A stretch of DNA of 64,000 nt from Terriglobia bacterium (lineage in GTDB: Bacteria; Acidobacteriota; Terriglobia; 20CM-2-55-15), in assembly GCA_965218585.1 (NCBI GenBank), contig CBDCLE010000002.1:64001-128000 (forward strand). The letters are read 5' to 3'. The notes under the pieces are model-generated. The model searched no databases. It was given only the letters and a program-made list of their open reading frames with translations, and was not told where the DNA came from. Below are positions 30,825 to 47,717 of this stretch, in pieces; within the stretch, counting starts at the first letter, position 1; every line of letters begins with the position of its first letter. A program made the translations under genes and the position numbers.

Positions 30825-30880
30825 TGAATTTCAGGACGGCTGAGGCTAGAAATTGTCTGCCGACCCTCGCCCAGCACCCC

Positions 30881-31483
30881 TTACGCAGTCGCGTGAATCG
30901 TTTTGACGACGTCCAGATAGACGTGTTGCACGTCCTGTAGCTCGAAACCGGCCGCTTGCACGTTGTCGACCGTCGGGCGGTTCATGTCGGGTCCGATCAC
31001 GCGCGTGATCAGCGTCATCAGGTTCAGCATCAGCTTGAACGGGTAGTACCGGCTGCCGGTGTGCTCGAACATGTATAGATCGCCGCCCGGCTTCAACACC
31101 TTGCGCAGTGCTTCGAGCCCTTTGATGGGGATCGGCACCGAGCAGAATGTGCAAGACGTGAACACCTGGTCGAAGTGACCGTCTTCGAACGGCAGGTCGA
31201 GCACATCCATCTGCTCCACCGTTAGATCACCCTGGTACTGGCCGACACGCTCTGCGGCCTGGTCGAGCATCTTCTGGCTGATGTCGATGCCGAGGATCGT
31301 CTTGCCGCTCGGAAAGAACTGCACGTCGAGCCCCGTGCCGACGGCGAGAAACAAGATGTTGCCGCTGCCCATGTTGTCGAAGAGCGCTTCTTTGTACGGA
31401 CCCCATCGTTTCTCCGGGCCGTAGGAGGCCATCAGATCGAAGTTGGGCGCCGCGCGGTCCCACTTTTTTTGCGTTACGAGGTC
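30881..31483 (-). CDS. Class I SAM-dependent methyltransferase; start probably clipped by the IS256 remnant
   Basis: LAVGTG, GIDIS, FCSVP, LKPGG; the frame extends upstream of Met 31432 as DLVTQKKWDRAA without an ATG. Confidence 0.75.
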   Translation of the reverse strand, partial: DLVTQKKWDRAAPNFDLMASYGPEKRWGPYKEALFDNMGSGNILFLAVGTGLDVQFFPSGKTILGIDISQKMLDQAAERVGQYQGDLTVEQMDVLDLPFEDGHFDQVFTSCTFCSVPIPIKGLEALRKVLKPGGDLYMFEHTGSRYYPFKLMLNLMTLITRVIGPDMNRPTVDNVQAAGFELQDVQHVYLDVVKTIHATA

Positions 31484-31902
31484 GTTTTCCGAATGTAGGG
31501 AGGTACCAGGGCCGACCGGAACGTTACCGGGTCGCCAGTCTTCGCTCGGACTTTCGGGATCTGGACCGTTACCGGCCCCAAACCGGTCTGCAGTTCACGT
31601 TCAGGCAGATAACCGTTGCGCACCACCCCGGCGTTGCCCGTCTCGGTTCTCCGATCGCCGTGGTGGGATAGCAGTTCCGCCAATTCGGTTTCCACCGCGC
31701 GTTGGATCAGTTGCTGAGCTCCAACTCGTAGTAGCTCTGTTATCGGATCCTCAATCGTCTCTCGACCCTCCGGTCCATTCACGTTACTCTTGCTCATAGT
31801 GGCGTATCTCCCTTGGTTGCTTTGAAGTCTGGTAAACAACAAATCAACCAGATACGCCGCTCTTCCTCAATCCCTTAAACACCAGATTCGGTTATAACTC
31901 TC
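31474..31902 (-). mobile_element. Truncated IS256-family remnant (one end plus transposase N-terminus)
   Basis: RNGYLPERELQTGLGPVTVQIPKVR..SALVPPY; end-like sequence GAGAGTTATAACCGAATCTGGTGT. Confidence 0.8.
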
Positions 31903-32078
31903 AGGTACATTGTCGCGAACAAAACCAGATAGATGAACGCTTCACGCGCTTCTGACCTTCGCGGTTTTGGAACCGGGATCCCGTACGGGCTCTCACCGTA
32001 GCCCGCTAGGGCCTGTCGGACCTGCGGTTCCCCCCAGCCAGCGTCAAGCAGAACACTCCGGATTTCTTTTTCGTCCAT
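31903..32078 (-). pseudogene. N-terminal fragment of a DUF5671-like membrane protein
   Basis: LLDAGW..PVPKP..AREAFIYLVLF, cut by the IS256 remnant. Confidence 0.5.
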
Positions 32079-32130
32079 AACCAGCCATATGAGTTACCCC
32101 GTTGGTCGTGTAGGAATTATTCGCAAGAAA

Positions 32131-32170
32131 AGTCTCAAATCCTCGCAAACGACATTGTCGGACTTTGAAA
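32131..32170 (-). repeat. Island site B1 (inverted)
   Basis: Reverse strand TTTCAAAGTCCGACAA-TGTCGT-TTGCGAGGATTTGAGACT; ~57 bp nearly identical to 47661-47717. Confidence 0.85.
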
Positions 32171-32190
32171 AAAGGCCTAAAAACGGGGGT

Positions 32191-32226
32191 TTTCAAGGTC
32201 CGAGAACAGGATCTGATAGGGTCGAG
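32191..32226 (+). repeat. Island site B2 (degenerate right arm)
   Basis: TTTCAAGGTCCGAGAA-CAGGAT-CTGATAGGGTCGAG. Confidence 0.6.
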
Positions 32227-32329
32227 CACTGGTGAGGTGACCCGTAGGCAACTCCTTGGTTGTATCCGGCGCGTACTGACCCATCCACGAAAGCGGGGCG
32301 ACTTCAATGATACTTTGGTGAGTGGGCTG

Positions 32330-33694
32330 GAGGTCGTTCCAATCGGTGTGTAAAAAGAGAAGGCGGTGTACGCTTTCAGTGAATTCGAAACCCTAAGCAA
32401 TCCCGGCAGCAATCGGGAGAAAGGTACACCACCCATGAAGAAGAAGAACATACCGGCATCAGTGGCGTCAACGAACGCGTATGAAGGTTTGGAGGACTGG
32501 GCGCGATCCCGGGTCCAAGTCTGGCTACAGGAGCTGCTCGAGGACGAAGTCACTCAATTTCTGGGTCGGGAAAAGTCGGAGCGGAGTCCGAATCGACGAG
32601 GATACCGGAACGGTCACGGGAAACCGCGACGCTTCGCAATGGTGAACGGTACGATGGAGGTTCGACGACCTCGGGTTCGAAACACCGCCGAGCGGTTCGA
32701 GAGTCAGATCCTGCCGTATTTTCGACGGAAATCGAAACAGCTGGGCGAGCTACTTCCCGATCTCTACCTCCACGGTCTGGCCACAGGGGACTTCGAGCAG
32801 GCCATGCGCGGACTGCTTGGCGCTGGCGCTCCGTTGTCGCGAGCATCGATCCAACGACTGAAATCGACCTGGCAGTTGGAGTATGACGAGTGGGTCCAGC
32901 AGGACCTGTCCGGCCTCGAGGTCGTGTACCAGTGGGCAGACGGCTTGTACGTGAAAGCGGGGATCGCGAAAGAGCGAGCGGCATTGCTGGTGATCATCGG
33001 AGCCTTGTCAGACGGGCGCAAAGTGCTGTTGGCCTGTGAGAGCGGGCAGCGGGAAAGCAAGGAGTCCTGGAGCCGCATTCTGCGCAATCTCCAGAGACGG
33101 GACCTGAAGCTGGGACGGCTGACTGTCGCGGACGGTCACCTGGGCATCTGGTCCGCGCTGGCCGAGCAACAGCCCCAGGGCCAGGAACAACGCTGCTGGA
33201 ACCACAAGTCGATCAACGTGGTCGATCATCTGCCGAAGACCGAGCAGCCCGCGGCCAGACAGCTGCTTCATGGGATGGCCTTCGCGAACTCCCGCGCGGC
33301 CTGCGAACGAAAGCGGGATCAGTTCGTCCGCCGATATGAGAAGAACTATCCCAAAGCGGGTGAGACGCTGTTGCGGGACTGGGACCGGATGATTACTTTC
33401 TATGAGTTCCCGAAACAACACTGGGTGCATCTGAGAACAACCAACATCGTCGAATCGCCCTTCGACATGGTTCGCCTCCGCACCAACGCCGCTCGCCGAT
33501 TCAAGCGTGTCGAGAATGCAACGGCAATGATCTGGAAGCTACTACGTGTCGCTGAGAAGGCTTGGCGACACTTAAAAGGATCCGAACTCTTACAAGAGGT
33601 CTATGATGGTCAGCAATTCGCTGACGGCATCAGAGTCGTGATGAAATCGAAGGCCGCCGCCTGATGACTTTTACACACCTTTTGTAATGACCTC
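32330..33694 (+). mobile_element. Complete IS256-family element
   Basis: TIRs GAGGTCGTTCCAATCGGTGTGTAAAA / GAGGTCATTACAAAAGGTGTGTAAAA; 8-bp TSD GTGGGCTG (32322-32329 / 33695-33702). Confidence 0.93.
32435..33664 (+). CDS. IS256-family transposase
   Basis: YRNGH, WADGLY, VADG, QRCWNHK, RTTNIVESPF. Confidence 0.93.
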   Translation: MKKKNIPASVASTNAYEGLEDWARSRVQVWLQELLEDEVTQFLGREKSERSPNRRGYRNGHGKPRRFAMVNGTMEVRRPRVRNTAERFESQILPYFRRKSKQLGELLPDLYLHGLATGDFEQAMRGLLGAGAPLSRASIQRLKSTWQLEYDEWVQQDLSGLEVVYQWADGLYVKAGIAKERAALLVIIGALSDGRKVLLACESGQRESKESWSRILRNLQRRDLKLGRLTVADGHLGIWSALAEQQPQGQEQRCWNHKSINVVDHLPKTEQPAARQLLHGMAFANSRAACERKRDQFVRRYEKNYPKAGETLLRDWDRMITFYEFPKQHWVHLRTTNIVESPFDMVRLRTNAARRFKRVENATAMIWKLLRVAEKAWRHLKGSELLQEVYDGQQFADGIRVVMKSKAAA

Positions 33695-35642: not shown

Positions 35643-35682
35643 GCCTCAACGTCCGAGACGGGGATTTCCGAGGACCTGAGAA
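35643..35682 (+). repeat. Island site C
   Basis: CTCAACGTCCGAGAC-GGGGAT-TTCCGAGGACCTGAGAA. Confidence 0.85.
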
Positions 35683-35761
35683 TGGATTTCAGCGGCTGAA
35701 GGTGGAACAGCTCCGTTCCCCGGACCGCCGCCCTCACTTTAAAGGTTTGGCGTCGCGCGGA

Positions 35762-36523
35762 CTACTGACTACGGAGCAGTGGGACAAATCGGACCGGAGT
35801 GATGTCACGAATATCGACTCCACCTCCGGGCAATTTTTCAATCACCTTCAGGATCTGGATGGAGGCCGGTTCACCGACGGGAATGACCATCCGGGCTCCC
35901 GGCTTGAGCTGAGCAATCAGAGGTTGAGGAATCTCCTTGGCTCCGGCCGTGACGAGGATTCCATCGAAGGGACTGAACTCGGGCCATCCCAGGTACCCGT
36001 CACCTTCCCGTACCGAGACGTTCAAAATCCCGAGTCGTTCGAGTCGCTCTCCCGCGGAGCGGGCCAGCTCCGGAATGATCTCAATGCTATAGACTTCGGC
36101 CACCAGCTCGGCGGCGACGGCGGCCTGGTATCCCGATCCCGTTCCGACCTCGAGAAGACGGCCGTCCGGTTCCGTCTGAACGAGTTCAGTCATCAGAGCA
36201 ACAACGTAGGGCTGCGAGATAGTCTGATCCAATCCAATTGGTAGGGGCGCATCGTTGTAGGCCAAGGCTCTATAATCCGCGGGAACGAACTCGTGTCGGG
36301 GAACCCGTGCCATGGCTTCAAGAACCCGAGAGTCACGGATTCCTCGAGCTTCGATCTGCTGTTCGACCATCTGTTTGCGTGCCTGCCCAAAGTCTATGTT
36401 CTGGCGTGGTGACACCTGTGGTGAAATCGCTTCCACCGGGTCCGGACGGCAGGACACTACAACAGCAAACAAGAGCGCTAGAAACAAGGCCCGCGACCGT
36501 TGAGTGAGACAAGAAATATTCAT
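35762..36523 (-). CDS. pcm: Protein-L-isoaspartate O-methyltransferase
   Basis: VPRHEFVP, QTISQPYVVA, LEVGTGSGYQAA, VRFVPL. Confidence 0.93.
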   Translation of the reverse strand: MNISCLTQRSRALFLALLFAVVVSCRPDPVEAISPQVSPRQNIDFGQARKQMVEQQIEARGIRDSRVLEAMARVPRHEFVPADYRALAYNDAPLPIGLDQTISQPYVVALMTELVQTEPDGRLLEVGTGSGYQAAVAAELVAEVYSIEIIPELARSAGERLERLGILNVSVREGDGYLGWPEFSPFDGILVTAGAKEIPQPLIAQLKPGARMVIPVGEPASIQILKVIEKLPGGGVDIRDITPVRFVPLLRSQ

Positions 36524-36552
36524 TTGCGCAATTCTAGTTTCCGTTGCTGAGA

Positions 36553-36590
36553 TTCTCAAGGTCCGAGAAGGGGATTTCCGAGGACTTTTA
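36553..36590 (+). repeat. Island site D
   Basis: TTCTCAAGGTCCGAGAA-GGGGAT-TTCCGAGGACTT. Confidence 0.85.
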
Positions 36591-36661
36591 TCCGGAAGCT
36601 CCGGAGCCGAAGTTGAAGATGCTTATCCAAATTTCATTTCCAGCGTCGGGTACAGCGTAGT

Positions 36662-37465
36662 CTAGGGAGCGACGACCTCTGCGATCTCGAAGTGGATGCC
36701 TGCGGGCCCTTCGAAGAACATCAGGTCTGAGCCCGGCGGGTTGGGTCTAACCAGATAGGGCTCGTATCCGGAGGCTTCGAGAACTTCGCGGAACTCTTCC
36801 AGCGAGGGTACGCCAAAACCCATGTGATCGAGTGACCGGTAGCGGCTCGGCGCTGTATCACTCTCCGGAACCTGCGAAATCTGGACCCATAAGTCGCCGT
36901 ACAAGATGGTGTGAAACTGCCCCTTGCCGCGTGCCGGGATATCCTCGCCTCCGAACACTTCAAGGAACCACTCGTGAACGCCGTCCGCGTCGCTCGCCAT
37001 GAAATGGACGTGATTCACTCCCGTGTAGACAGGGTCCTCAAGTAGTTCGATTCGCGTTCCCCAGGGATCCTCGATAAACGCGATGGTTGATGCCGTGATA
37101 CCGACCCGCGGCTCGTCCCGGATCTGTGCGCCCATTTCCCTGGCGAGTGCCACGGTAGCGGCGACGTCTTCAACGGCTATGCCAAAGTGATCGATGACAC
37201 CGCCCTGGCTCGGTCGCGTCTCACCTTCGGTGGGCATTGTCATAACCATGCCGTTGCCGTAACGGACAGCCTGTCCAGGGCCACGCGCGACTACCTCGCC
37301 GCCGAGCAGCGCCTGATGCCACACCGCCGCTTCGGTTGTGTCCGGTACACGCATGTGTACGTGCGTAAAAACGCTCTGCGCGAGGACGGAACCAGGGAGC
37401 AGGAACACGCCCAGCGTCAAGCGAATGAGCTGGATTCGAAGCCGTGGATAATTCGTGTGAGACAT
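36662..37465 (-). CDS. VOC/glyoxalase family protein (two domains), exported
   Basis: HVH, DHFG, DPWGTRIEL, NHVH, DHMGF, GP.G..FEI. Confidence 0.85.
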   Translation of the reverse strand: MSHTNYPRLRIQLIRLTLGVFLLPGSVLAQSVFTHVHMRVPDTTEAAVWHQALLGGEVVARGPGQAVRYGNGMVMTMPTEGETRPSQGGVIDHFGIAVEDVAATVALAREMGAQIRDEPRVGITASTIAFIEDPWGTRIELLEDPVYTGVNHVHFMASDADGVHEWFLEVFGGEDIPARGKGQFHTILYGDLWVQISQVPESDTAPSRYRSLDHMGFGVPSLEEFREVLEASGYEPYLVRPNPPGSDLMFFEGPAGIHFEIAEVVAP

Positions 37466-37653
37466 GGTGATCTCCTCGTATTCAGGTCGGTGTCGGTATC
37501 GCGAAACACCTCTCCCCTACCACCTCACCGATCTGGCTCGGATCTCGTAGGGACCGAGTCTTGTGCCCGATCGCATGGACTAAGTGTCCAGTTGAGCGGT
37601 CTACTGAAAAACTCGTTAAACGATACTCGAGGTGGGTGTTAGACACAATCAGA

Positions 37654-37690
37654 AGGTCAGGTCCTCCAGAACGACTTTCCCGGACATTCA
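37654..37690 (-). repeat. Island site E1 (inverted)
   Basis: Reverse strand TGAATGTCCGGGAA-AGTCGT-TCTGGAGGACCTGACC. Confidence 0.7.
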
Positions 37691-37712: not shown

Positions 37713-37750
37713 TTTCAACGTCCGAGAAGATGATTTATCAGAACTTGACC
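37713..37750 (+). repeat. Island site E2
   Basis: TTTCAACGTCCGAGAA-GATGAT-TTATCAGAACTTGACC. Confidence 0.85.
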
Positions 37751-37819
37751 TCAAGTATCGGGGCACCGGCACCCGGTCTTTCAGCGACGTCTCCGCGAAT
37801 CTGTTCGGTACGCCAGTTT

Positions 37820-38329
37820 TCAGTCGCCGCCGACTACCTCCCGAAGTTGAGCGAGGAGCGCGTCGACGGGAATCAGCCGGCCCGTGACGTCCTTCCAGAG
37901 GATGGTGCCCTCTTCATCGAGGAGAAAATAGAAGCGGCTTGCCGCACCGCCTCCGCTCCCGGCTCCGTAACGGCCGATGATCGTTCCATCGGGGTCACTG
38001 ACGAATGGGTTGGGGGTGTTGACTGAAGCCGCGAATTCGCGCTGGCGGTCCGCTCTATCTGTGGAAATGCCGACGACTTCGATACCGAGTGTCTGGAACT
38101 CGGTGTACTTTTCACCGACCTCGGTGAACTCTCGCGTTCAACCGGGAGTGAAGGCGGCCGGGAAGAACGCCAGCAGCACTTTCGTCTGCCCTCGGAGTTC
38201 GTCGAGTCCGAACTCCGGAGCTGTCGAGCCAACCGCAGGCGTGTTGTCCTGTCGGGGAGCCTGGAGCTGAGCTAGGGCGATGCCGCTGGAGACGAACAGC
38301 CCGAGGGCGAGTAACATCAGCTTCTTCAT
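37820..38329 (-). CDS. Selenocysteine-containing peroxiredoxin (AhpC/TSA), exported, 169 aa
   Basis: FFPAAFTPG-TGA-TREF: TGA (38138-38140) sits at the peroxidatic PxxxTxxC position; the frame continues through VVGISTD, PFVSD, RFYFLLDEEG; SECIS hairpin follows. Confidence 0.88.
38111..38128 (-). promoter_or_regulatory. Bacterial SECIS hairpin
   Basis: TGA-ACGCGAGAG-TTCACCG-AGGT-CGGTGAA; G-containing loop 16 nt after the UGA. Confidence 0.75.
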
Positions 38330-38479
38330 CGTCAATTGTCCTCCATATCTATTTACATCGATACACCAACCGGGGTGCCGGACGGGACCCTCCAAGCTGT
38401 GTGCCGGATTCCATTTTGAAAAGCTGGTTAAAGGATACGAAAGGCAGAAATTATGTGCAATGAATCTGTCACAGCGAAA

Positions 38480-38519
38480 TTCTCAGCGTCCGAGAAGATG
38501 ATTTCCCAGGACCTGAGAC
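38480..38519 (+). repeat. Island site F
   Basis: TTCTCAGCGTCCGAGAA-GATGAT-TTCCCAGGACCTGAGAC. Confidence 0.85.
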
Positions 38520-38736
38520 TCACTTTTCACGATCATCTCGGGCACCTCCTGTTTCTCTTGTACATGCCAGAGCTTTCCGCCAATAATAGGCATAATAGCG
38601 GCCGCGTCAGCAGGAGAGTCAAGCGCACGGCCGCGAGAGTTTTTCCGCACGTTCTTTCCGCGGAGCCACAGGGCTCCAAATATCCTGAACCGGCTCCGTT
38701 ATGGGACTGCTCGATCGAGGAGAAAGGAAGGTGCAA

Positions 38737-39689
38737 ATGGCGAAGGTGATCGGACTCGTGGGGCTGTCCGTTCTCATGGTGGCGGGGCTTACCACGCCCA
38801 TCTCTGCCCAGAGGGGCGCGCGTTTTCCCGGGATAATCGATTTTTCTGGCGAGTGGATCGACAACTCGTTTGAAGGAGACGATCGTGTTGGGCCCCCCAC
38901 GGCAGGTCCCCGAGCAAACGGGCTCCAGCACGATGCGTGGCTCGGCAACTACCTGGGCATACCGTACAACGATGCCGGAAGGCAGAAAGGCGCAGCCTTC
39001 GATCTTGCCATCTACTCCCACCCTGCCTGGACATTCCGTCCGCATCCTGTCCAGTATTCCATGCGTGGGGTCATCAACAATTGGAGGATGGCGAAGGAAA
39101 TACATCCGGTGACCGGGGAGCTTGTGGCATACCGAATTACGGGAGGGTACAACCTGGACCGGATCATCTGGATGGACGGTCGGGAGCGTCCTCCCGACTA
39201 TGCCGACACACCTACAATGGATTTTCGACCGGACGGTTCGAGCGTGGAATACTGGTGGTAACGACCACGCACATGAAACACGGATACCACAAGCGTAACG
39301 GCGCTCCGGCGAGTGACCAGGCGACGATGACCGAGCACTTCATACGCCACGGGGATCGGCTGACGATCGTCCAGTTCACCGAGGATCCGGTCTATCTCGA
39401 GGAGCCCTACGTCCGTACCGGGGACCATATCCTGGCACACAATCGGCATGCGAACACTCGTTTCAATGTTCCCACAGCCCCGGGCTGGAACGCAGCCGAA
39501 GAGGTCATCTGGGACGAGGGTTACCTTCCTCACCATCCGTTGGGAACACGTCATACACAGATTTCGGATTTTCTCGGGATTCCTTACGAATCAACGCAAG
39601 ACGGCAGCGAAACGCTCTATCCGGAGTATCGGGAGACCCTGAATCAATTGATGAGTCAGGAAGAAAACGCCCCAGGTGGTGGGAGGTAG
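38737..39689 (+). pseudogene. DUF6152-partner family exported protein, frameshift at ~39205
   Basis: DFSGEW..RIIWMDGRERPP in one frame, HTYNGFSTGRFE..TEHF..DPVYLEEP in the next. Confidence 0.75.
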
Positions 39690-39735
39690 AAGACACGATA
39701 GGCTGACCCCCAAAGTGTCGCCCGGAAAAGGAAAC

Positions 39736-39774
39736 TTCTCAACGTCCGAGAAGATGATTTCTCAGGACTTGACC
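39736..39774 (+). repeat. Island site G
   Basis: TTCTCAACGTCCGAGAA-GATGAT-TTCTCAGGACTTGACC. Confidence 0.9.
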
Positions 39775-39781
39775 TCGAAAA

Positions 39782-39843
39782 TCAAGGAACCGGCACCCGT
39801 TCCTTCAGTTCTTCAAACCAGTCTAGGACGATCTTGACTTGGG
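39782..39843 (-). pseudogene. C-terminal remnant of a Ser/Thr kinase-propeller gene
   Basis: Encodes QVKIVLDWFEELKERVPVP-stop; repeated at 37758, 41226, 44726, 45309. Confidence 0.7.
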
Positions 39844-39963
39844 ATCGTTGCATCTCACCGTCGTTCTGGAAAGTACGTTTCAGCGCCGGGAATCGTCCAT
39901 CGGGGACACGTCATAATATGTCACCTATGTCCTGACCGGTGGAGAGGTAGCGATAGGCGGACG

Positions 39964-40881
39964 TCAAGGCTCTGGACTGCTATCTACTACCTCGCGCGTG
40001 GCGTCGCGCCAAGCACCATCGCCCACGACCTTTCCGGGCAACTCCTCTCTCTCGACGCTGACCACAACCTCTGACCCCAGTTGCAGGCTCTCTACACTGT
40101 CTTTCCCCCGCGGCAAAAAGCGGGCGGCGACTTCTCCAAGAGGTGGCCCGTAGAAGTGAATGTCGATGGCATCCTGACCCGAGGTGTTCGAGACGGCATG
40201 AATGGTGTTCGGGCCATCCAACTCCATCAGCATACTCGGATGAATGACGTCTCGCTGGGTCAGTCGGAGCCGGTTCTCGCTCAGTCGATCGAAGTGCGTA
40301 ATCTCGAGCTGTCCCTCGACGGTCTTGCCCAACCCGACGCAATTGTGGGAGTGGATATGAGCGCGGGTACCCGCGGTCCACTGAATTCCGACCAACGAAC
40401 CGTTTCCTTTCTTGCTCTCCCAGTAGATGGCGCGTCGGTAGTTGATCGGAGGAAGAATCGCGCTCTTTCGTATTGGTTCGAGCTCTCCGATGACCGGGTA
40501 GACCTGCTTCAAGATCCTTTTCGCGACTGTTGGAGTGAGATCCTCTTCCAAGTCGTAGTACTCGAATAGGTCAACCGCCTCGCGTAACGACAGTGGCGCT
40601 CTCGAAGCGAGGCGATGCCTTAGCTGTGTCGTTTCCGGTAGGATGAGCCGTCCCAATCGGTAGAGACCAAAGGAAATAACGAGTGCGATGCCCCCGGAAG
40701 TGAGCACGAGCCACGGAGAGTTTCTGGCGAAAAACAGCAGCATGACGAGCGATACCCCGGCCATGCCGATCGAGCCGCAGGCACCCGCGACTACGGCCTT
40801 CCAACCAATCTCAACGATCGTGGCCAGGTTGATCCGGAGACCTATTCCCGCACACACGCAGACGATCAGAAACGATACCAC
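39964..40881 (-). pseudogene. 5'-truncated YeiH/sulfate-exporter-like membrane protein fused to a cysteine-dioxygenase-like cupin
   Basis: AGIGLRINL...GWKAV TM end; HIHSH, IHAVSN, IHFYGPP. Confidence 0.6.
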
Positions 40882-41040
40882 CTGGTCATTAATCGAGAGG
40901 GTCGTGGCCCAGGCTCCAGTACCGCCAAAGAACGCACGACAGCAGCGTCTCAGTTTTAGGAAATGGGCGGTGAGGCGGGGACAAAACCCGTATATCGGAT
41001 GTAGAAGGTATGCAGGTGGTCCGGAAACTTGGAAAAAGGA

Positions 41041-41074
41041 CTTCGTACTGGCCGAGTTTGGTGCTGGATTCCAT
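41041..41074 (-). pseudogene. N-terminal remnant of a Ser/Thr kinase gene
   Basis: MESSTKLGQYE; DNA nearly identical to the kinase start at 47593. Confidence 0.75.
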
Positions 41075-41114
41075 GTTTAAAGTATGTCGCTGACAATACC
41101 GTGAAAATCTCGGC

Positions 41115-41158
41115 AAAGAATACTAAGGGAGGGGTTTGTAAGCAATCAGAAGGTCAAC
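41115..41158 (-). promoter_or_regulatory. Module promoter block, identical to 44610-44653
   Basis: 44-bp exact repeat containing TTGCTT-17 bp-TATTCT on the minus strand; related blocks near 37610-37659 and 47633-47686. Confidence 0.7.
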
Positions 41159-41169
41159 ATCCGTATTAA

Positions 41170-41209
41170 TTCTCAACGTCCGACAAGATGATTTAACAGG
41201 CGTTGAGAA
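41170..41209 (+). repeat. Island site H
   Basis: TTCTCAACGTCCGACAA-GATGAT-TTAACAGGCGTTGAGAA. Confidence 0.9.
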
Positions 41210-41225
41210 TCATTTTCATGGTCGA

Positions 41226-41285
41226 TTAGGGGACCGGCACCCGTTCCCTCAGTTCTTCAAACCAGTCCAGGATGATATTGATCTG
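41226..41285 (-). pseudogene. Kinase C-terminal remnant
   Basis: QINIILDWFEELRERVPVP-stop. Confidence 0.7.
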
Positions 41286-41291
41286 CTCATC

Positions 41292-42155
41292 CTACCGGCC
41301 TTCGGCCTCCTGAAGCATCGCGTCGAATCGGGTCTCGACGCCCTCCACGTAACCCCTCCACCCTTCCGCGTCAAAGCAGGTCACACACCCCGAATCGACA
41401 GGAAGAGCCGGGTCCAACTCGCGGGGCGGATTCTGCGGGTGGTTGTGGAGAAAGAGGTCGGGAGGTTCGAGATCCCTCAGCCGTAGAAGCGTCCTCTGCG
41501 TATCGGCCACAACCGTCGGGTGCCTGGGATTGTTGAAGAGCTGAACGCCAGCGTTCGGAATTTCGCCGCCACGGAAAGCGACGGAGTAGGCATTCCCACC
41601 CTGCTGGGCAGTTGTCATCCACATCGTTGCTCCTTGCGTGTGGCCACCTGTCCAGAGGGCGCGTAACGTTACCCCGCCCAACGCGACGGTGTCACCGTCC
41701 TCGATCACGCGATCCACCGTGACAGGCTCCCAGCCTCGGGCTCCGAGAGCCGAGTTGTCCTGGCCTGACTGGAGCGCCACCGCGTCGCCGCCGAGCGCGA
41801 CAACTTGCGCGCCGGTCACCCGCTTCATTGCCGCATGTCCCTCAACGTGGTCCCAATGCGCATGGCTCGAGATCATGATCCGAATGTCCCGGACGTTGAA
41901 CCCAAGTTTCTCGACGTTCGACACGATGAGCGCATGCATATCGGCGCTGCCCGTGTCGTGGAGAATGTGACCCTCTGGCGTGGTTATGAGATAGGAGCCA
42001 TATTGGCCGCCGACATAGTAGATATTGCCTATGACGCGGAACGGTTCCACGCCTTGGCTCTCCGCTTGACTCCGCTCGCCTCGCTCCGCTGCACCATACG
42101 GGGACACCGATAGCATCGCAGCACTCAGCAATACCAACGCACATATCAGACGCAT
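41292..42155 (-). CDS. Subclass B3-like metallo-beta-lactamase
   Basis: Signal peptide; EPFRVIGNIYYVG, SYLITTPEGHIL, SHAHWDH, GHTQG, HNHP. Confidence 0.85.
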   Translation of the reverse strand: MRLICALVLLSAAMLSVSPYGAAERGERSQAESQGVEPFRVIGNIYYVGGQYGSYLITTPEGHILHDTGSADMHALIVSNVEKLGFNVRDIRIMISSHAHWDHVEGHAAMKRVTGAQVVALGGDAVALQSGQDNSALGARGWEPVTVDRVIEDGDTVALGGVTLRALWTGGHTQGATMWMTTAQQGGNAYSVAFRGGEIPNAGVQLFNNPRHPTVVADTQRTLLRLRDLEPPDLFLHNHPQNPPRELDPALPVDSGCVTCFDAEGWRGYVEGVETRFDAMLQEAEGR

Positions 42156-42468
42156 AACGGCCTCCTTAACAATAGTGCGTGTCGCAAGTCCGCTTCCGGA
42201 CGGTATGGAATGGAATTTCGATTCTTGGATGAGCTGGATCACGTTCTTGGTCCGGAGTTCGTTAGAATGCAGGAGAGCCTTGCCGAGATCCAGGCACTCA
42301 GTCGAATCTTGCAGGACTGAAAGTCCTCAACTCCTCCAAATTGTCTCGTTCCGATCGTCACTCTGGTCTGCCGTCATGCCGCGCAACTGCGATGATTCGT
42401 GATATCCGGGCGAAGTTCCGAGATGAACGGCAGTGCTCACGAACTCACTGAAGCCTGACTGTGGGTCA

Positions 42469-43077
42469 TCAGCGAAGCTCTGTGCCTCCCCTTCGGTCGT
42501 CAGTAACAAACTTGTCCCTGGCGGGCATCTCGACCCGTGGGAGCGTGTCGGCGTTCATCACCGCGTCCTCGCTGATAATGTCATTCAGATAGAGAAGATA
42601 AGCGGTCAGGCTGTAGACCTCGTTCGGTTCGAGTGTGCCTGGCGCGTCGAACGGCATCGCGCGGAAGGTGTAGTCGTACAGGGTAGTAGCAAACGGCCAG
42701 TAGTTACCGATCGTTCTTGCGAGCGAGGGCTCGTTGCCGAACGGAAATCCTTCACGTGGCTCTCGTCCGACGAGCTGATCGAACGGCTGGCCCTCGCCGT
42801 TCGGGCCGTGGCACATCCCACACTTTTCGATGTACAGCTGTTGACCCTGCTCGGCGGTGCCGCTGCCAGCCGGCAGGCCCCGGCCGTCTGGTGTGACGTC
42901 GATATCCCAGGCCGCGATCTCAGCTTCCGTGGCAGGGCGGCCGAAACCGAACCGCTGCGGCTGCTGTTCGGTGCCCTGCTGGGCCTGCATGTAGATCGGA
43001 ACTGCCAACAGCACGACACCCAATGCCCTCACCACGCTTACGCCGAAACCGACGCGTACAAGTCGATACCTTGACAT
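42469..43077 (-). CDS. Cytochrome c, SoxD/SorB-like
   Basis: EIAAWDIDV.PDG.GLP.GSGT, CGMCH, TIGNYWPFATTLYDY..RAMP. Confidence 0.88.
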   Translation of the reverse strand: MSRYRLVRVGFGVSVVRALGVVLLAVPIYMQAQQGTEQQPQRFGFGRPATEAEIAAWDIDVTPDGRGLPAGSGTAEQGQQLYIEKCGMCHGPNGEGQPFDQLVGREPREGFPFGNEPSLARTIGNYWPFATTLYDYTFRAMPFDAPGTLEPNEVYSLTAYLLYLNDIISEDAVMNADTLPRVEMPARDKFVTDDRRGGTELR

Positions 43078-43170
43078 CAATCCGTTACTCCATCCGGGTC
43101 GCAATCTGCGGTGGTGAGGAAGCTCATTCAGTTTTCAGTTCTCAAGTGGCTGTGGCCCCGAGCTCCGCTC

Positions 43171-44436
43171 CTACCCATCCACCGCAAACACCGTCGACCC
43201 ATCCTGGCGCACACGGCACCCACGGATGTGGTTGTAGTGATAGCTCGTGCCGATACCGCGCACGGCAATCAGCTCGTCGAGCGTCGGCTGCACGTAGCCC
43301 GTCTCGTCAGTCGCGCGGCTCAGGATGACGGTTTCCTCTCCCTGCCAGTTGAACACCGCGCGAAACCGCGTGTGGCAGATCGGCAGCACCGGATCCTGTA
43401 GCTGGGCGTCCTGCCACGTACGGCCACCGTCGGTCGTGATCTCGACCCGCACGATCCTGCCGCGGCCGCTCCACGCCAGCCCGGAGATCTCCCACCACCC
43501 GCGCTCGGATAACGTATCGGGGTAGGCTGGGAATGTGATGATCGACTTTGCGTCCATCGTGAAGCTGAATTGACGCGCCGTGCCGTCCGGCAGCGGGTCG
43601 GTGTACTTGGACGTTTCCTCGCGCGTCATGAAGGCCTCGTCGCCGACTTCGATGCGACGGATCCACTTGATGCTGGAGTTGCCTTCCCAGCCCGGCAGGA
43701 ACAGGCGCACCGGATATCCCTGCTCCGGCCGCAGCGCCTCACCGTTCTGCCCATACGCAATCAGCGCGTCATCCATCACCTTGGACATCGGGATACTGCG
43801 CGTCATGACCGCTGCGTCGGCACCTTCCGCCAGGATCCACGTGGCTTCAGCAGGCACCCCAACCTCCTGCATGAGCGTCGCCAACGGCACGCCTATCCAT
43901 TCGCTGGTGCTCGTCAGGCCGTCGACCGCCTGGGGCGTGCGTTCCTCGGTCGCGCGGTCGCGATAGGAGCCGCCGCCGTTGCCGGAGCATTCCATGAAGT
44001 GGATGACCGAGCGTGAGGGGAACCGCCTCAGATCGGCCACCGTGAACATCGTCGGCCGATCGACCATACCGTGGATGAGCAACGTGTGTCTTTCCGGGTC
44101 GATGTCCGGGATGCCACCGTGATGCCGCTCGAAGTGCAGGTCGGACGGCGTGATGATGCCGTCGAGATCCTGGTGCGGCGTACGGGAGCTGGTCGGCCGC
44201 TCGCTGGAGTACAGCCGCCTAGGCTGCTCGAATGCTGACCTCGTGCCCAGCTCACTGGCGCCTCGCCCTTGGACCTTAGTTGGATCGTCGGGCACCGTCG
44301 GCTGCTCTTGCTGCCGGGCATGCGCCTTGCCGAACGGCATGGCAGCCGTACCCAGGACGCTAGCCGTGCCTACCAGCATGGCGCGGCGACTGATCGGTTG
44401 CCGGGGGGAGCTGCTCCGGGTGATCTGCTTAGCCAC
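43171..44436 (-). CDS. soxC: Sulfite dehydrogenase molybdoprotein SoxC
   Basis: Tat SRRAML; GIITPSDLHFERHHGG, ECSGN, EQGYPVRL..PGWEG, REETSKYTD; GTG start with GAGGAG RBS. Confidence 0.9.
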   Translation of the reverse strand: MAKQITRSSSPRQPISRRAMLVGTASVLGTAAMPFGKAHARQQEQPTVPDDPTKVQGRGASELGTRSAFEQPRRLYSSERPTSSRTPHQDLDGIITPSDLHFERHHGGIPDIDPERHTLLIHGMVDRPTMFTVADLRRFPSRSVIHFMECSGNGGGSYRDRATEERTPQAVDGLTSTSEWIGVPLATLMQEVGVPAEATWILAEGADAAVMTRSIPMSKVMDDALIAYGQNGEALRPEQGYPVRLFLPGWEGNSSIKWIRRIEVGDEAFMTREETSKYTDPLPDGTARQFSFTMDAKSIITFPAYPDTLSERGWWEISGLAWSGRGRIVRVEITTDGGRTWQDAQLQDPVLPICHTRFRAVFNWQGEETVILSRATDETGYVQPTLDELIAVRGIGTSYHYNHIRGCRVRQDGSTVFAVDG

Positions 44437-44609
44437 TGATGTCTCCTCAAGATTTACATTGGGTGATTCGCGTAGGATACCGGGAATATACCATGGAGCG
44501 CATGTGAGTGGCGAACCACCAGTGCTACTATCTGCTGGGTTCACTTCATGCTCACTCGGGCTCGGAGACACGGGTGGGACTGACAGGCAAGAAGACCTAA
44601 AAACTCGCT

Positions 44610-44653
44610 AAAGAATACTAAGGGAGGGGTTTGTAAGCAATCAGAAGGTCAAC
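44610..44653 (-). promoter_or_regulatory. Module promoter block (copy 2)
   Basis: Exact 44-bp repeat of 41115-41158. Confidence 0.7.
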
Positions 44654-44670
44654 GCTTGTATTTAGGCCAA

Positions 44671-44710
44671 TTCTCAACGTCCGACAAGATGATTTATCAG
44701 GCGTTGAGAA
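44671..44710 (+). repeat. Island site I
   Basis: TTCTCAACGTCCGACAA-GATGAT-TTATCAGGCGTTGAGAA (39/40 identical to H). Confidence 0.9.
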
Positions 44711-44725
44711 TCATTTCATGGTCGT

Positions 44726-44779
44726 TTAGGGAACCGGGACCCGCTCCCTCAGTTCTCCAAACCAGTTGAGAACAACGTA
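44726..44779 (-). pseudogene. Kinase C-terminal remnant
   Basis: YVVLNWFGELRERVPVP-stop. Confidence 0.7.
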
Positions 44780-44843
44780 GGTCGAACGGCAACTCCCATC
44801 GCTCGTACGAAACACGTAAACGCTATTAGGCGGCAGGGAATGA

Positions 44844-45239
44844 CTATGTGGCAACCGGTTGCCACGTCACAAGCGCCACCTGCCACTCGCCGCCCGTCCT
44901 CCGTAGGATCCATAGATGCGTTCCCGCCGTAACCCTCACCTCGGAGCTTCCTGCAGCGGCATAGCGCGTGCTGTAAGTACTAGTCTTGTACGCGAACGAA
45001 TCGCTCCCACGAATCTGGATGTCGGCCGTCTGGATTTCTCGAATCTCGACACCCGGCTCTGCCAACAACTCTCTAGCCGCTACCTTGCCAACAAGTAGCT
45101 CCGAGTTAGGAACAAGCCACTGCACGTCGTCGGTGCATAGTTGCAGCACCCCCAGAACATCTCCGTCCAACTCCCTGGCGATCCACCGATCGTGAAGGTT
45201 TCTAATTTCCTGAAGATCTCGGTGGGATAGGTCGGACAT
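44844..45239 (-). CDS. NTF2-like / SnoaL-like (DUF4440) protein
   Basis: W....GD....L.TDD...P...GK; WILRR..GEWQV. Confidence 0.75.
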   Translation of the reverse strand: MSDLSHRDLQEIRNLHDRWIARELDGDVLGVLQLCTDDVQWLVPNSELLVGKVAARELLAEPGVEIREIQTADIQIRGSDSFAYKTSTYSTRYAAAGSSEVRVTAGTHLWILRRTGGEWQVALVTWQPVAT

Positions 45240-45308
45240 GGCCTCACCCGTGACACATCCTACCGTTACGTGCAACACAAGCTGTCACGAACTGAACCTT
45301 TCGATGTT

Positions 45309-45347
45309 TCACTGCACCGGAACCCGTTCCTTCAGTTCTTCAAACCA
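45309..45347 (-). pseudogene. Kinase C-terminal remnant
   Basis: WFEELKERVPVQ-stop. Confidence 0.7.
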
Positions 45348-45599
45348 GGGTCGAAAGTCGTTCCGAACCAGACTGGACTCCAGGCTGGTAAGTTCATGAC
45401 TTTCATAGCATTTCGCGGAGCTAAGCGAAGCGTGCAAAAAGTGGATGCCTGAACTCACTCCACCGGCACGCGCTCGCGCAGCTCTTGGAACCAGTTCTGG
45501 GCGATGTTGATTCGAGGTGTGGAGCAGCGGCACGGACTGCTCCGGCAACGTCGTTCCTCCAACTACAGAGGAACGATCTATCGCCCCGTTTTTCCGGCT

Positions 45600-45995
45600 T
45601 TACTGCCCGGGATTACGAATGTTGAAGACGCGGCCGTCCTCGGTGGTCACCTGATAAATGAGGACGCCTCTCATGCCGTTCGCATGCGGGGGATTACCCG
45701 AAACGGTAATTCGAGTGCCGGGCGCGATCGTGTCGTTGCCGGCGTAACCGGCTTCTCTCATGCCCTGTAGCGAAGCCGAGGTTCCTACCCACCGCTCGCC
45801 GTTTTCGTCGGTCCATGCGAGCTGCGAATGTGGGTTCATTATCCTAGCTCCCACCAGGGTTCCGGCTACCTCTATCTGAGCCTCGGTATTCCAAAACGTC
45901 GTAACCGAGTGGTGTGCGACGGCAGAGACACTCAGCGAAACAAGGATCCCCACCGCCCACAATGCTGAAACCCAAGTACGAATTCTCATGACCAT
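45600..45995 (-). CDS. DUF6152-like exported protein
   Basis: AVAHHS, NPH. Confidence 0.75.
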   Translation of the reverse strand: MVMRIRTWVSALWAVGILVSLSVSAVAHHSVTTFWNTEAQIEVAGTLVGARIMNPHSQLAWTDENGERWVGTSASLQGMREAGYAGNDTIAPGTRITVSGNPPHANGMRGVLIYQVTTEDGRVFNIRNPGQ

Positions 45996-46054
45996 TACTC
46001 CTAATGTTCTCATCAAGGTTGGTCTAGGACTCTTGAGCCCTCACCACATTCTCA

Positions 46055-46873
46055 CTACCGATTGATGGAAATGTCGGCACCATATGGATCCGGAACCGTC
46101 CCTTCCACTTCGAACAGGTTATATTCCGGATCGCAGTTATACACGCCCATCGGCACATGTTCAGCATCCCGCGTCATCATGTGGCTCCACGTAAAAGGCC
46201 TCAACAGCATGAGAGGATCCTCGAGCGTGATGGTCACTCTCATTGTGTCCTCGTCCAGCAACATATAACGCTCAGTGACCTTTTTCATGTCCGAACTGGG
46301 AATATGGAGATGGTCGTCGATTCCATCCACGTCGAATGTGAAATTCGTCGTCTCGATAACGAATTCGTTGTCTCCCTCGAAGCGACCTCTCGAATACCCC
46401 GTAAACCAGGAATCCCTGGGGTGTGGGGCATCTCGCCCGTCCATCCAGACGTGGCGGGTGTGCCAGTAGTAACTCTGTATGATCTGCAGTTCGACCTCGG
46501 ACACGAATCTCCACGTGTGGATCATCCCATCCAACGCGGCGGGTACCGTCGGCGGTTTGCAGTGCCATTTCGGTGAGAGGTATTCATCGCGGCGAAAGAT
46601 CTCCGTTAAGGCCAATGCCCGAGGGCTCAAGTAAGGTTCTAGGTCATTGTACGGAATCGAACACCGGATCACGGGGTTGCCCACTGTATTCGTAAGATGC
46701 CCACAGGCTTCAGACTGATTGAAATCGTTACCCATGATATTCCACGACCCGTGGAAGGCCGGCGGCCACGAATTTGCCTGGGCCTTGAGGTCCTCGGTGC
46801 CCACCAGCGTGACGGCGGTTAGCAAGGCAAGTGTTGCCAACAAACTCCACGCTTTTTGTGTCCATGAATGCAT
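46055..46873 (-). CDS. DUF6152-partner exported protein (closest to 5446-6318)
   Basis: SPKWHC, RHVWMDGR, GYSRGRFEG, ETTNFTFD.DG.DD, YNCDP. Confidence 0.75.
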   Translation of the reverse strand: MHSWTQKAWSLLATLALLTAVTLVGTEDLKAQANSWPPAFHGSWNIMGNDFNQSEACGHLTNTVGNPVIRCSIPYNDLEPYLSPRALALTEIFRRDEYLSPKWHCKPPTVPAALDGMIHTWRFVSEVELQIIQSYYWHTRHVWMDGRDAPHPRDSWFTGYSRGRFEGDNEFVIETTNFTFDVDGIDDHLHIPSSDMKKVTERYMLLDEDTMRVTITLEDPLMLLRPFTWSHMMTRDAEHVPMGVYNCDPEYNLFEVEGTVPDPYGADISINR

Positions 46874-46964
46874 GGTTGCTGCTCCTTGTACTTGTTGCGG
46901 GTTCAGAGTTTGTATATCACCACAATGTCAAATATCCAGCATGAAATTGTGGGCCCGCGGCCTC

Positions 46965-47363
46965 CTACGGTGCCGGCTCCGGATCCGGCCCTCCGCCGTA
47001 TCTCCTCCCGTCGGGAAGAGTGATTGAGGACAACTGGCCCGCGAGGGCTTCCGTAACGGAAGGAAAAGCGACAACGGTCACTTCTTGACCGACCGGCAAG
47101 GTCACTGGGGTAAAACCCGTAAAGATGAAGCCGCGAATGGAACCGCCTTCGAGAGCCCAATTGAGCACTTCGCCCCCTTCGTCCTTCACGTCGATATAGA
47201 GTGACGCATGGGGACTCCGTAGGACGAACTCCGTGACGGTGCCGCGCAATGTGACCGGATTCCTCCTGTCAACCGATAGTGGTGTCGAGTGATGCCCGTC
47301 GAGCGATCCAGAGAAGATAGACAGGACGGCAAACAAGCCGAAAACCGTGGCCAACCTTTTCAA
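46965..47363 (-). CDS. DUF6152-like exported protein
   Basis: TTG start with GGAG RBS; GHHS, SPH, WALE. Confidence 0.75.
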   Translation of the reverse strand: MKRLATVFGLFAVLSIFSGSLDGHHSTPLSVDRRNPVTLRGTVTEFVLRSPHASLYIDVKDEGGEVLNWALEGGSIRGFIFTGFTPVTLPVGQEVTVVAFPSVTEALAGQLSSITLPDGRRYGGGPDPEPAP

Positions 47364-47419
47364 CAGGTAGTCTCCAATTACCGCAGATTCCTCTCCGGTT
47401 TTCTCGTGAGTCTGTCTGT

Positions 47420-47593
47420 AGGACGTTCAAATCGGGCAAGCCGATCAGCATCCTCGGCAAACTCCTCAGGCGTTGTCTTAATAGCCACCTCACGCCCGAG
47501 CTTCGTGTCCCGAGCACGCCACACCTCACCCATTCCACCCTTCCCTAAGAGCGTTGAGATCTCGTAGTGGCCGAGTTTGGTGCCGGATTCCAT
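47420..47593 (-). pseudogene. N-terminal fragment of a Hanks-type Ser/Thr kinase
   Basis: [46 protein letters not shown], then homology stops. Confidence 0.92.
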
Positions 47594-47678
47594 GTCTTTA
47601 GAGTGTTGTGCGGTCACAGACCGCACCTACAGAAATTCCGGCTAAATATAACTACAGGTGGGAGTTATTCGCAAGAAA

Positions 47679-47717
47679 AGTCTCAAGTCCTCGCAAACGA
47701 TCTTCTCGGACGTTGAA
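47679..47717 (-). repeat. Island site K (inverted; last copy before core genes)
   Basis: Reverse strand TTCAACGTCCGAGAA-GATCGT-TTGCGAGGACTTGAGACT. Confidence 0.88.

Follow-up and report, generated by a model that had tools for sequence, protein, structure and literature searches.

The array and its setting

The stretch of DNA considered here (the window) comprises 64,000 nucleotides of the genome of a Terriglobia bacterium (GTDB lineage Bacteria; Acidobacteriota; Terriglobia; 20CM-2-55-15; GenBank assembly GCA_965218585.1, contig CBDCLE010000002.1, positions 64,001 to 128,000 of the forward strand). From 30.8 to 47.7 kb its minus strand carries a strain-specific gene array, which is split by nine copies of a short palindromic site, and six C-terminal and four N-terminal relics of one family of Ser/Thr kinases with a PD40 propeller lie beside these sites. 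The genes between the sites (the cargo) are ordinary accessory genes. The array is one of about twenty in this genome (G000; completeness 95%), with which four congeners (G001 to G004) were compared. Synteny with all four (a helicase gene, an RNase H-like gene and a small ORF) ends at about window position 47890, and none of them has sites at this place. The first-pass annotation of the window had seen in the kinase remnants the shells of an amplified unit, composed of site, promoter, kinase and site, whose interior would be repeatedly replaced by captured genes. As argued below, the evidence favours recycling of the kinase ends by decay and fusion of neighbouring units, and not interior replacement.

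Eight of the nine sites are co-oriented (30788, 35646, 36556, 37715, 38483, 39739, 41173 and 44674), and the ninth, at 47695, is a flipped variant; the two kinds are referred to below as the S and the K type. The recurrent junction module is about 240 nt long and consists of the end of an ORF (..(VLN)WFEELKERVPVP-stop), a spacer of 7-17 nt, the palindrome, a leader and the sequence ATGGAATCCGGCACCAAACTCGGC, which encodes MESGTKLG. In G000 and in a sample of 403 kb of G001 (the G001 sample) neighbouring S-type sites point the same way in 39 of 40 and 85 of 89 pairs, respectively, at a median spacing of 1.6 and 1.9 kb; the longest ORF of an interval runs in the direction of the site in 27 of 36 and 51 of 77 cases. 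Of the 20 K-type sites of G000, 16 lack any co-oriented site in the preceding 8 kb, and behind 11 a kinase start comes within 200 nt. The blocks upstream of the kinase starts, which had been described as homologous promoters, are indeed homologous, as follows from an alignment of 45 copies, in which the TTGAGA box of the K site replaces the TTGAC box of the other leaders. The position of the K sites together with this alignment indicates that the arrays typically open with K site, leader and kinase, after which come units each closed by an S site. The outer flanks of the K-type sites are heterogeneous and hold no recurrent recombinase gene. A scan for sigma-70-type promoters gave 5 matches with 4.6 expected; the sequence TTGAGA-17-TAGAAT lies at 36559..36531, upstream of the methyltransferase gene.

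The palindromic site

The site is an imperfect palindrome of 36-40 nt with the outer boxes TCTCAA(C/G)...GTTGAGA, a loop of 6 nt and two single-base bulges, situated on opposite arms; its stem is continuous and 13-17 bp long. Two inverted arms, each of roughly 11 nt, thus surround an asymmetric centre of 6 nt (11-6-11). In the majority of copies the 5' arm reads TCAAG, the base preceding TTGA being left unpaired, and a minority variant, TCTCAAC...GTTGAGA, agrees in 6 of 7 positions per box with the attC boxes RYYYAAC / GTTRRRY of integrons. The flipped K variant keeps its own loop sequence (..GATCGTTT..). The pairing potential is considerable, 80.6% of the cells being paired versus 33-44% with the partner slid. 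An Rfam search of the window from 30 to 50 kb returned a single snoRNA match, at the level of chance.

The 22-mer core of the site occurs nine times in the window (up to 3 mismatches) versus 0 expected from 100 shuffles. With up to 4 mismatches G000 holds 75 sites, which lie on 15 of its 26 contigs in about twenty clusters; with up to 2 mismatches the counts are 55 in G000, 144 in G001, 101 in G003, 8 in G002 and 1 in G004. At the latter threshold three genomes of other genera of the same family have one site each, the 16 genomes searched from other families of the class have none, and the reversed control gave none in any genome. A scan of public collections for exact sites found one locus in genome_contigs and two loci in metagenome_contigs, which carries little weight. 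The degeneracy of the sites (52% within one mismatch in G000, 72% in G001) was left out of consideration, since the G001 regions had been preselected as good matches and the comparison with G000 is therefore biased.

Several further observations concern the site as such. S and K copies also stand in pairs of opposite polarity just 5' of kinase leaders, at a distance of 46-47 nt (sometimes 136 nt), which gives them a REPIN-like appearance (REP, repetitive extragenic palindrome); examples are G000:C2:547187/547323 and loci of G001 such as L056 around 19657-19725. In the site-poor G004 one full-length kinase gene (L040:4613) is followed by the 5' arm and the first loop bases only (..TCAAGTCCTGTTAAATCC), past which the sequence diverges, i.e., by a half-site broken in the loop. 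Finally, just 5' of the site, for example at 39782-39810 of the window, the stretch encoding KERVPVP is able to fold into a small hairpin (AAGGAAC...GTTCCTT); this hairpin is imperfect in many copies and may merely follow from the codons.

The kinase family and its relics

The earlier assignment of both kinds of remnants to a single kinase family is borne out by intact members, which have both termini in one protein and stand between sites of this kind. Thus, an 889-aa protein of G001 with Pkinase and PD40 domains has both ends, terminates in VVLNWFEELKERVPVP and is encoded between two sites. At the end of the window's contig (G000:C2:547436-552959, L018) two near-intact kinase genes stand in tandem with one frame break each; they start with MESGTKLG(A/H)YE, end with ..LNWFEELKERVPVP and have sites before, between and after them. 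The unit composed of site, leader, kinase and site is amplified, as had been claimed. Full-length members of about 900 aa are numerous in all five genomes of the genus, as are N-terminal fragments; G004 has at least 12 full-length family kinases, yet almost no sites. Kinase copies beside sites in G000 are mostly truncated or frame-broken, and the intact copies examined in full are those of the congeners.

The five C-terminal relics first reported for the window (37758, 39782, 41226, 44726 and 45309, minus strand) are all in place, although a sixth, at 45455-45510, had been missed, and the one at 37758 has CGA in the position of the stop codon. Four of them do end near a site, 7-17 nt before the hairpin, while those at 45309 and 45455 have none. 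The kinase starts at 47593 and 41074 are real as well, except that the former is not a mere row of first codons: it keeps about 70 residues and aligns with the beginning of the kinase domain, including the Gly-rich loop and VAIK (residues 1-70; 81-88% identity). The Pkinase score of this fragment (47384-47593; 19.3 bits) is below the cut-off because the piece is short. Further short starts are found at 38414 (MESGTQLG) and 37576 (MRSGTRLGPYE).

The same relics are abundant outside the window. In G000 and the G001 sample, to which all relic and motif counts refer, the start motif was found 45 times versus 0 in the reversed control, the end motif 105 times versus 1, and the last 36 nt of the kinase gene, selected by nucleotide similarity, in 113 copies versus 0. 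Among 102 C-terminal relics, 7 lie in frames of at least 300 aa; a site follows within 80 nt in 57 of them and is lacking there in the other 45. Counted back from the stop, the end relics can be aligned with the family consensus over as few as 5 and as many as more than 21 residues, lengths of about 12 and about 18 being mildly favoured, and the break points of the N-terminal fragments are scattered from residue 36 to residue 225. Looked at from the side of the sites, G000 has an end relic just upstream of 16 of its 72 S-type sites and the G001 sample of 45 out of 117, a long kinase being attached in 3 cases each.

Mismatches in the 113 copies of the last 36 nt number 112, 89 and 306 at codon positions 1, 2 and 3, a pattern which indicates that the relics diverged under protein-coding constraint. 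It follows that they derive from many separate kinase genes rather than from one noncoding element that was copied. Codon positions 1 and 2 have diverged little (about 4.5% non-consensus in a set chosen by peptide match), which suggests fairly recent truncations.

Exchange of units and insertions at the sites

Non-kinase genes sit behind kinase leaders and before kinase-derived sites, and site-bounded segments have been exchanged between arrays and between species; in these respects the first-pass annotation is upheld. Between species the backbone genes, represented by those for the helicase and the RNase H-like protein at the flank, show 73-75% identity, and cargo genes 85-93%. The methyltransferase gene of the window is 92-93% identical to its counterparts in G001 and G003, but only 75-78% to those in G002 and G004. 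The glyoxalase/VOC gene is 88-90% and the metallo-beta-lactamase-fold gene 85-88% identical to the copies in G001, G003 and G004, and the cysteine dioxygenase (CDO) gene 89-90% identical to the copies of congeners.

Two units recur within G001. One of them, of 1327 bp, is present in two arrays at 99.3% identity; the copies differ by 0.7%, and the identity begins exactly at TTGAGAAT, the upstream site differing at several positions (4 in a 40-nt window), so that the boundary can be written as N|TTGAGAAT. The other, of 423 bp, is 95.5% identical and also ends in sites. A comparison of flanks across 176 sites revealed 13 pairs that share the downstream flank only: within the site they differ in the 5' arm and up to the base before TTGA, but in none of the following six columns. 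The 16 pairs with only the upstream flank in common do vary in these columns.

Insertion sequences (IS) are likewise found at the sites. In G001 one IS110-family and one IS30-family element are inserted exactly in the 6-nt loop, with both junctions visible: the 5' arm is on one side and the loop with the 3' arm on the other, in several copies of 99-100% identity. A second IS110-family element of G001 abuts the loop at its right end only (the three cases are represented by L058:12470-14022, L046:1949-3211 and L059:1-1340). The sites are thus a preferred landing place for insertion sequences, copies of which fill the arrays of G001; a specific choice of target is known for IS110/IS1111 elements (PMC11187229). 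Taken together, the duplicated units, the identity of the cargo, the shared flanks and the insertions in the loop point to the sites as probable recombination joints.

A multi-copy 2.5-kb element of G001 with genes for a tyrosine recombinase of 293 aa and a Y2 transposase of the IS91 family (394 aa) lies in either orientation about 30 nt from a site (L015:4850-7359 and L016:10375-12884). Its tyrosine recombinase was considered as the recombinase of the cassettes and rejected, the element being absent from G000 and abundant in the site-poor G002.

The two kinase shells

Two intervals of the window had been put forward as shells that keep both ends of a kinase and have lost its middle. The first of them extends from 41208 to 39739. 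Its cargo ORF of 305 aa corresponds to the 3' half of an exporter-CDO gene, which encodes 625 aa in G003, and the homology to the G003 gene (90%) starts abruptly within the gene, at window position 40930. Contigs of two other sequencing runs (X5 and X7) stop matching at the same position, one of them continuing with 321 unlike letters. On the 5' side of the break there are 110 nt of filler (40931-41040), followed by 11 kinase codons and the leader. The truncated cargo and the abrupt break indicate that this shell is a product of deletions and not, as had been proposed, a kinase with a replaced interior. One deletion fused a kinase leader to a truncated neighbour. G003 shares the junction between the 3' flank of the CDO gene and the kinase end relic, but its relic is shorter by another 45-60 nt; the relic downstream of the CDO gene is thus older and still eroding.

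The other shell (47716 to 44674) contains the 70-residue kinase fragment, three apparently intact genes of a DUF6152 system, which begin about 60 nt past the end of the fragment, and a DUF4440 gene. It has three end relics, two without sites and the third with one, and looks like several units that lost their separating sites. No close relatives of its cargo genes were found in the comparison with congeners. Neither the 110-nt filler of the first shell nor the 60-nt stretch before the DUF6152 genes has a match elsewhere in the genus DNA compared, and no microhomology or signature of an inserted element is readable at the kinase/cargo junctions.

Paired ends are not the rule either, the relics standing mostly alone. 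When non-kinase intervals were classified as having both kinase ends, the start only, the end only or neither, the numbers were 3/6/8/31 among the 48 intervals of G000 and 10/8/21/48 among the 87 of the G001 sample. In the pooled 135 intervals, 13 have both ends, 14 the start only and 29 the end only (odds ratio 2.5, p = 0.039). This weak association fits independent scars together with some internally deleted kinases. In one interval with both ends the two sites begin only 549 bp apart, and a start fragment of 71 residues lies between them, which leaves little room for cargo.

Features of the window

The features of the array are listed in Table 1, from its upstream end.

Table 1. Sites, leaders, kinase relics and cargo of the array, in window coordinates
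Feature	Position	Strand	Basis
K site, flipped palindrome with loop ..GATCGTTT..; upstream end of the array, abuts the kinase leader	47681..47716	+	core scan
Conserved leader, putative promoter-like block 5' of the kinase start	47607..47680	-	45-region alignment; sigma-70-like match 47674..47645
Kinase N-terminal relic, about 70 residues (VAIK...RFER)	47384..47593	-	88% over residues 1-64; 81% over 1-70
Three cargo genes: DUF6152 (46965-47363), 272-aa protein (46055-46873), DUF6152 (45600-46016)	45600..47363	-	
Kinase C-terminal relic ..NIAQNWFQELRERVPVE-stop, not followed by a site	45455..45510	-	
Kinase C-terminal relic ..RPWFEELKERVPVQ-stop, not followed by a site	45309..45350	-	
DUF4440/SnoaL-like cargo gene	44844..45278	-	
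Kinase C-terminal relic ..VVLNWFGELRERVPVP-stop	44726..44781	-	
Palindromic site, S type	44674..44709	-	
Leader, promoter-like block not followed by a kinase start; continues into the molybdopterin oxidoreductase gene	44599..44662	-	89% to the copy at 41104
Cargo: sulfite-oxidase-like Mo enzyme (43171-44571), cytochrome c (42469-43104), metallo-beta-lactamase-fold protein (41292-42242)	41292..44571	-	
Kinase C-terminal relic ..QINIILDWFEELRERVPVP-stop	41226..41281	-	
Palindromic site, S type (H in the first-pass annotation)	41173..41208	-	
Leader (41104-41167) and 11-codon kinase start relic (41042-41074; MESSTKLGQYE)	41042..41167	-	
5'-truncated exporter-CDO gene, 305 of 625 codons, breakpoint 40930	39964..40930	-	
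Kinase C-terminal relic ..VKIVLDWFEELKERVPVP-stop; same junction, more eroded, in G003	39782..39837	-	
Palindromic site, S type (G in the first-pass annotation)	39739..39774	-	
Opposite-strand cargo: gene related to that of the 272-aa DUF6152-partner protein, broken by a frameshift	38701..39689	+	
Palindromic site, S type	38483..38518	-	
Kinase start relic (38382-38414), then AhpC/TSA peroxiredoxin-like gene with in-frame TGA	37873..38414	-	
Shortest kinase C-terminal relic, LKDRVPVP, stop changed to CGA	37758..37781	-	
Palindromic site, S type	37715..37750	-	
Leader (37607-37670), degenerate kinase start (37544-37576), glyoxalase/VOC cargo (36662-37465)	36662..37670	-	
Site (36556-36591), protein-L-isoaspartate methyltransferase cassette (35762-36559), next site (35646-35681)	35646..36591	-	
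Far array end: site (30788-30823, -), degenerate K/S doublet (32147-32214), IS256-family transposase (32366-33664, +)	30788..33664		

Three of the cargo genes deserve a comment. The peroxiredoxin-like gene (37873-38395, minus strand) has its in-frame TGA exactly in the position of the expected peroxidatic Cys (..AFTPG-TGA-TREF..); G000 possesses tRNA-Sec as well as SelB above the curated cut-off, and the gene probably encodes a selenocysteine peroxiredoxin carried as an array unit. In the frameshifted gene at 38701-39689 (plus strand) run X8, which represents a related strain, has an extra A after 39205, while three runs match the window, for which reason the frame break looks real. The IS256-family transposase gene at 32366-33664 lies inside the array and adjoins the degenerate site doublet at 32147-32214; owing to its 86% match to G003 this segment was first taken for a conserved flank and was then rejected as such.

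Assembly support

The junction modules are numerous, about 240 bp long and repeated, and short-read contigs break at the sites, none of them spanning the whole array; it is conceivable that such repeats caused a chimeric assembly, in which case kinase ends and cargo would not be truly adjacent. We regard this as very improbable. Exact short-read contigs from three runs of three studies cross several of the junctions (37185-38897, 40405-41132 and 45468-47516). Run X4, possibly the source sample, bridges both the junction of kinase start and CDO gene (40405-41132) and the stretch with the kinase fragment and the DUF6152 genes (45468-47516), exact contigs of X4, X5 and X7, the latter two from other studies, cover the stretches holding the sites 37715 and 38483, and the same architecture is present in three separately assembled species. 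The many contig "joints" reflect repeated modules of other loci and are no evidence of variants.

Comparison with integrons, REP elements and pdif modules

The closest parallels are offered by integrons and by clusters of attC sites lacking integrases (CALINs). Like these, the arrays consist of many units, in which co-oriented imperfect palindromes stand 3' of mostly co-oriented accessory genes, the site is specific to the species group and highly uniform in sequence, and it is targeted by elements of the IS110/IS1111 type. The end boxes TCTCAAC...GTTGAGA are near the RYYYAAC...GTTRRRY given in PMC8946536, and the best-resolved unit starts at N|TTGAGA, the attC boundary being G|TTRRRY, while other junctions lie in the loop or in the 5' arm. 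Chromosomal attC sites are known in Acidobacteria (PMC8352920), for which a model with a consensus length of 106, the ends GCCUAAC...GUUAGGC and an unpaired spacer has been published (PMC8352920, PMC8946536). Integron integrases are present in the genus as well: G001, G002 and G003 have IntI matches of 440-458 bits versus the curated cut-off of 265, with intact genes at G001:C9:714608-715549, G003:C2:3040327-3041268 and G002:C41:5422451-5423395, and G003 and G004 also hold broken copies. The differences are that in our arrays the bulges of the site are on opposite arms, many units have a conserved leader of their own, units reach the size of 2.7-kb kinase genes or three-gene groups, and arrays open with a flipped site variant and not with attI. 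No canonical attC arrays were found beside the intI genes, and the 18 kb or so upstream of the intact ones are free of repeat arrays of whatever kind. In G000 a crude scan for canonical attC ends gave 44 pairs versus 54 in shuffled DNA, without clusters, i.e., no canonical attC arrays; an earlier figure of 414 loose GCCTAAC..GTTAGGC pairs, counted without a control, was not used.

Fused cassettes, which occur in class 1 integrons, resemble the CDO unit in that deletion of a site together with parts of the adjoining genes makes a unit inheriting the outer ends of its parents; what distinguishes our case is that a large share of the units owe their ends to a single gene family. For the formation of cassettes in general, a group IIC-attC intron hypothesis has reportedly been proposed.

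REP elements are palindromes located 3' of genes, which occur in paired copies and serve as targets of IS110-family elements. The site shares with them and with the mosaic elements that they form (BIMEs) the character of an imperfect palindrome of 35-40 nt with many copies, the position at 3' gene ends, the opposite doublets at 46-47 nt and the targeting by the IS110 family. Unlike REP elements, the sites are clustered in about 20 variable islands instead of being dispersed, and the segments from site to site are exchangeable. Y1_Tnp matches are present in all five genomes, and among the loci inspected in four genomes no Y1 gene of the type encoding REP-associated tyrosine transposases (RAYTs) was seen flanked by the site, a single site-like match being noted at one of six loci. 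Since the Y1 genes are not flanked by the site, the arrays are not assigned to the REP/RAYT systems.

In the pdif modules of Acinetobacter plasmids genes are bounded by Xer sites. The likeness consists in short sites with two inverted arms of about 11 nt, a 6-nt asymmetric centre and both polarities. Most sites of our arrays, however, are direct repeats and do not alternate, and by eye they bear no resemblance to the conserved XerD arm of dif; the XerC/D-like genes of G000 were not linked to the sites. In the titles and abstracts searched we found no description of kinase-scarred cassette arrays, of scars shared by a whole gene family or of the site itself.

Interpretation

With confidence slightly better than even, we suppose that the arrays represent an integron-like cassette system, the commonest cassette of which is a kinase, and that the relics are scars of decay and fusion. 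The proposed course of events is as follows. Single accessory genes or small gene groups are kept in arrays split by co-oriented palindromes, the commonest unit in the genus comprising a leader, a gene for a kinase-PD40 protein of about 890 aa and a site, and the arrays typically opening with the flipped site variant and then a kinase. The sites would act as joints of a site-specific recombination, by which units are duplicated and exchanged between arrays and species. Kinase genes in the arrays would die often, by deletions that take the kinase body and sometimes also an intervening site and part of the neighbour; such a deletion would spare the leader and first codons, the last codons and site, or both. 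In this way accessory genes next to a dead kinase unit would come to be bounded by sites, inheriting its ends, possibly together with a working promoter in its leader. Most of the shells may have arisen in the same manner as the resolved one.

Several of our own results weigh against this supposition. They concern, in the first place, the enzyme and the site. G000 has no integron integrase (TIGR02249) above the cut-off, no site lies within about 10-20 kb of any intI copy examined, intact or broken, and G002 has an intact IntI yet only the few sites counted above. The length of attC sites is usually above 55 nt, and the palindrome departs from their traits in its 36-40 nt, its continuous stem, the lack of an unpaired central spacer and its 6-nt loop. 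Nor is there compensatory covariation in the site: the 80.6% of paired cells equal the expectation from column shuffles (246 of 500 shuffles reach this value), and an early impression of GAG:CTC versus GAC:GTC covariation was dropped when on counting the observed number equalled that of the shuffles. Consequently, a double-stranded palindrome read by a protein is equally possible as a hairpin. In the second place, the junctions are not uniform. The methyltransferase unit common to three species starts in the loop, with three different 5' arms, and the 3' arm differs in some of the site pairs with only the upstream flank in common. When cargo is compared between species, the homology mostly stops at ORF borders, which makes the borders of the units unreadable there. 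No duplicated units were seen within G000, no pair sharing only the downstream flank having both members in this genome; finally, a single shell has been resolved as a deletion. That the integron integrase is the enzyme acting on the sites we put at roughly one in three.

The proposal from which the analysis started, that a platform of site, leader, kinase and site has its interior preferentially and repeatedly replaced, thereby providing captured genes with a promoter and mobility, retains a true core: the kinase leader and site are reused by other genes, and site-bounded units move. Interior replacement as the mechanism is nevertheless unlikely in our opinion. It would account for the co-occurrence of start and end relics above independence, for the many S sites with an end relic compared with the three long kinases in each set, for the cargo being mostly co-oriented with the leader and for the DUF6152 genes starting shortly (some 60 nt) after the kinase fragment. 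However, the sole resolved shell is a deletion that also halved the cargo gene, solitary relics far outnumber the paired ones, and one of the paired intervals is too short for much cargo. Relic lengths are broadly spread and not fixed, 45 of 102 end relics have no site behind them, and the junctions, including the unmatched filler at 40931-41040, bear no readable trace of microhomology or an inserted element.

Of about the same low probability, as we see it, is the alternative in which the palindromes are REP-like or regulatory elements of kinase genes, such as terminators, operators or hairpins at mRNA ends, and the arrays are decayed tandem paralogues, shaped by homologous recombination and insertion sequences without any cassette system. 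No recombinase is tied to the arrays, the site stands just 3' of kinases and the K variant directly before leaders, its TTGAGA aligned with the TTGAC box, TTGAGA-17-TAGAAT precedes the methyltransferase gene, and the site shows no covariation beyond a plain palindrome; the targeting by the IS110 family is typical of REP elements too, and the G001 arrays are full of IS copies. Against this alternative speak the clustering of sites in islands and the Y1 genes, which are not flanked by them save for the one site-like match in six loci. A double-stranded operator would have no need of the strict polarity displayed by this near-palindrome, and the 38-nt repeats in which the unit duplicates end are short for RecA-dependent exchange. 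Furthermore, cargo is far more alike between the site-rich species than the backbone is, and G004, with its full-length kinases and almost no sites, indicates that the site is not an obligatory part of the gene.

A stronger form of the cassette reading should also be mentioned, namely that the palindromes constitute a new, minimal class of attC-like sites, with dozens of kinase-anchored arrays per genome, flipped "landing-pad" starts and relics as fossils of cassette birth. We hold it to be a rather doubtful possibility.

Significance for the genus

How genes become mobile cassettes and gain a recombination site is still unresolved for integrons. In the genus studied here between one-fifth and two-fifths of the site-bounded units keep the last codons of one kinase family, and these retained codons make the history of the units readable and testable by comparison of strains. 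Two other traits add to the interest of the arrays: large sensor kinases are held in them as exchangeable units, and a very short hairpin site is targeted by at least three types of insertion sequences. If the sites are substrates of the integron integrases of the genus, the known range of attC structures would be extended; if they are not, the arrays would point to a cassette system with an unknown recombinase. Should the minimal-attC reading prove true, cassettes would be born by recycling the leader and site of a cassette whose gene has been deleted, which would answer the question of how sites are acquired.

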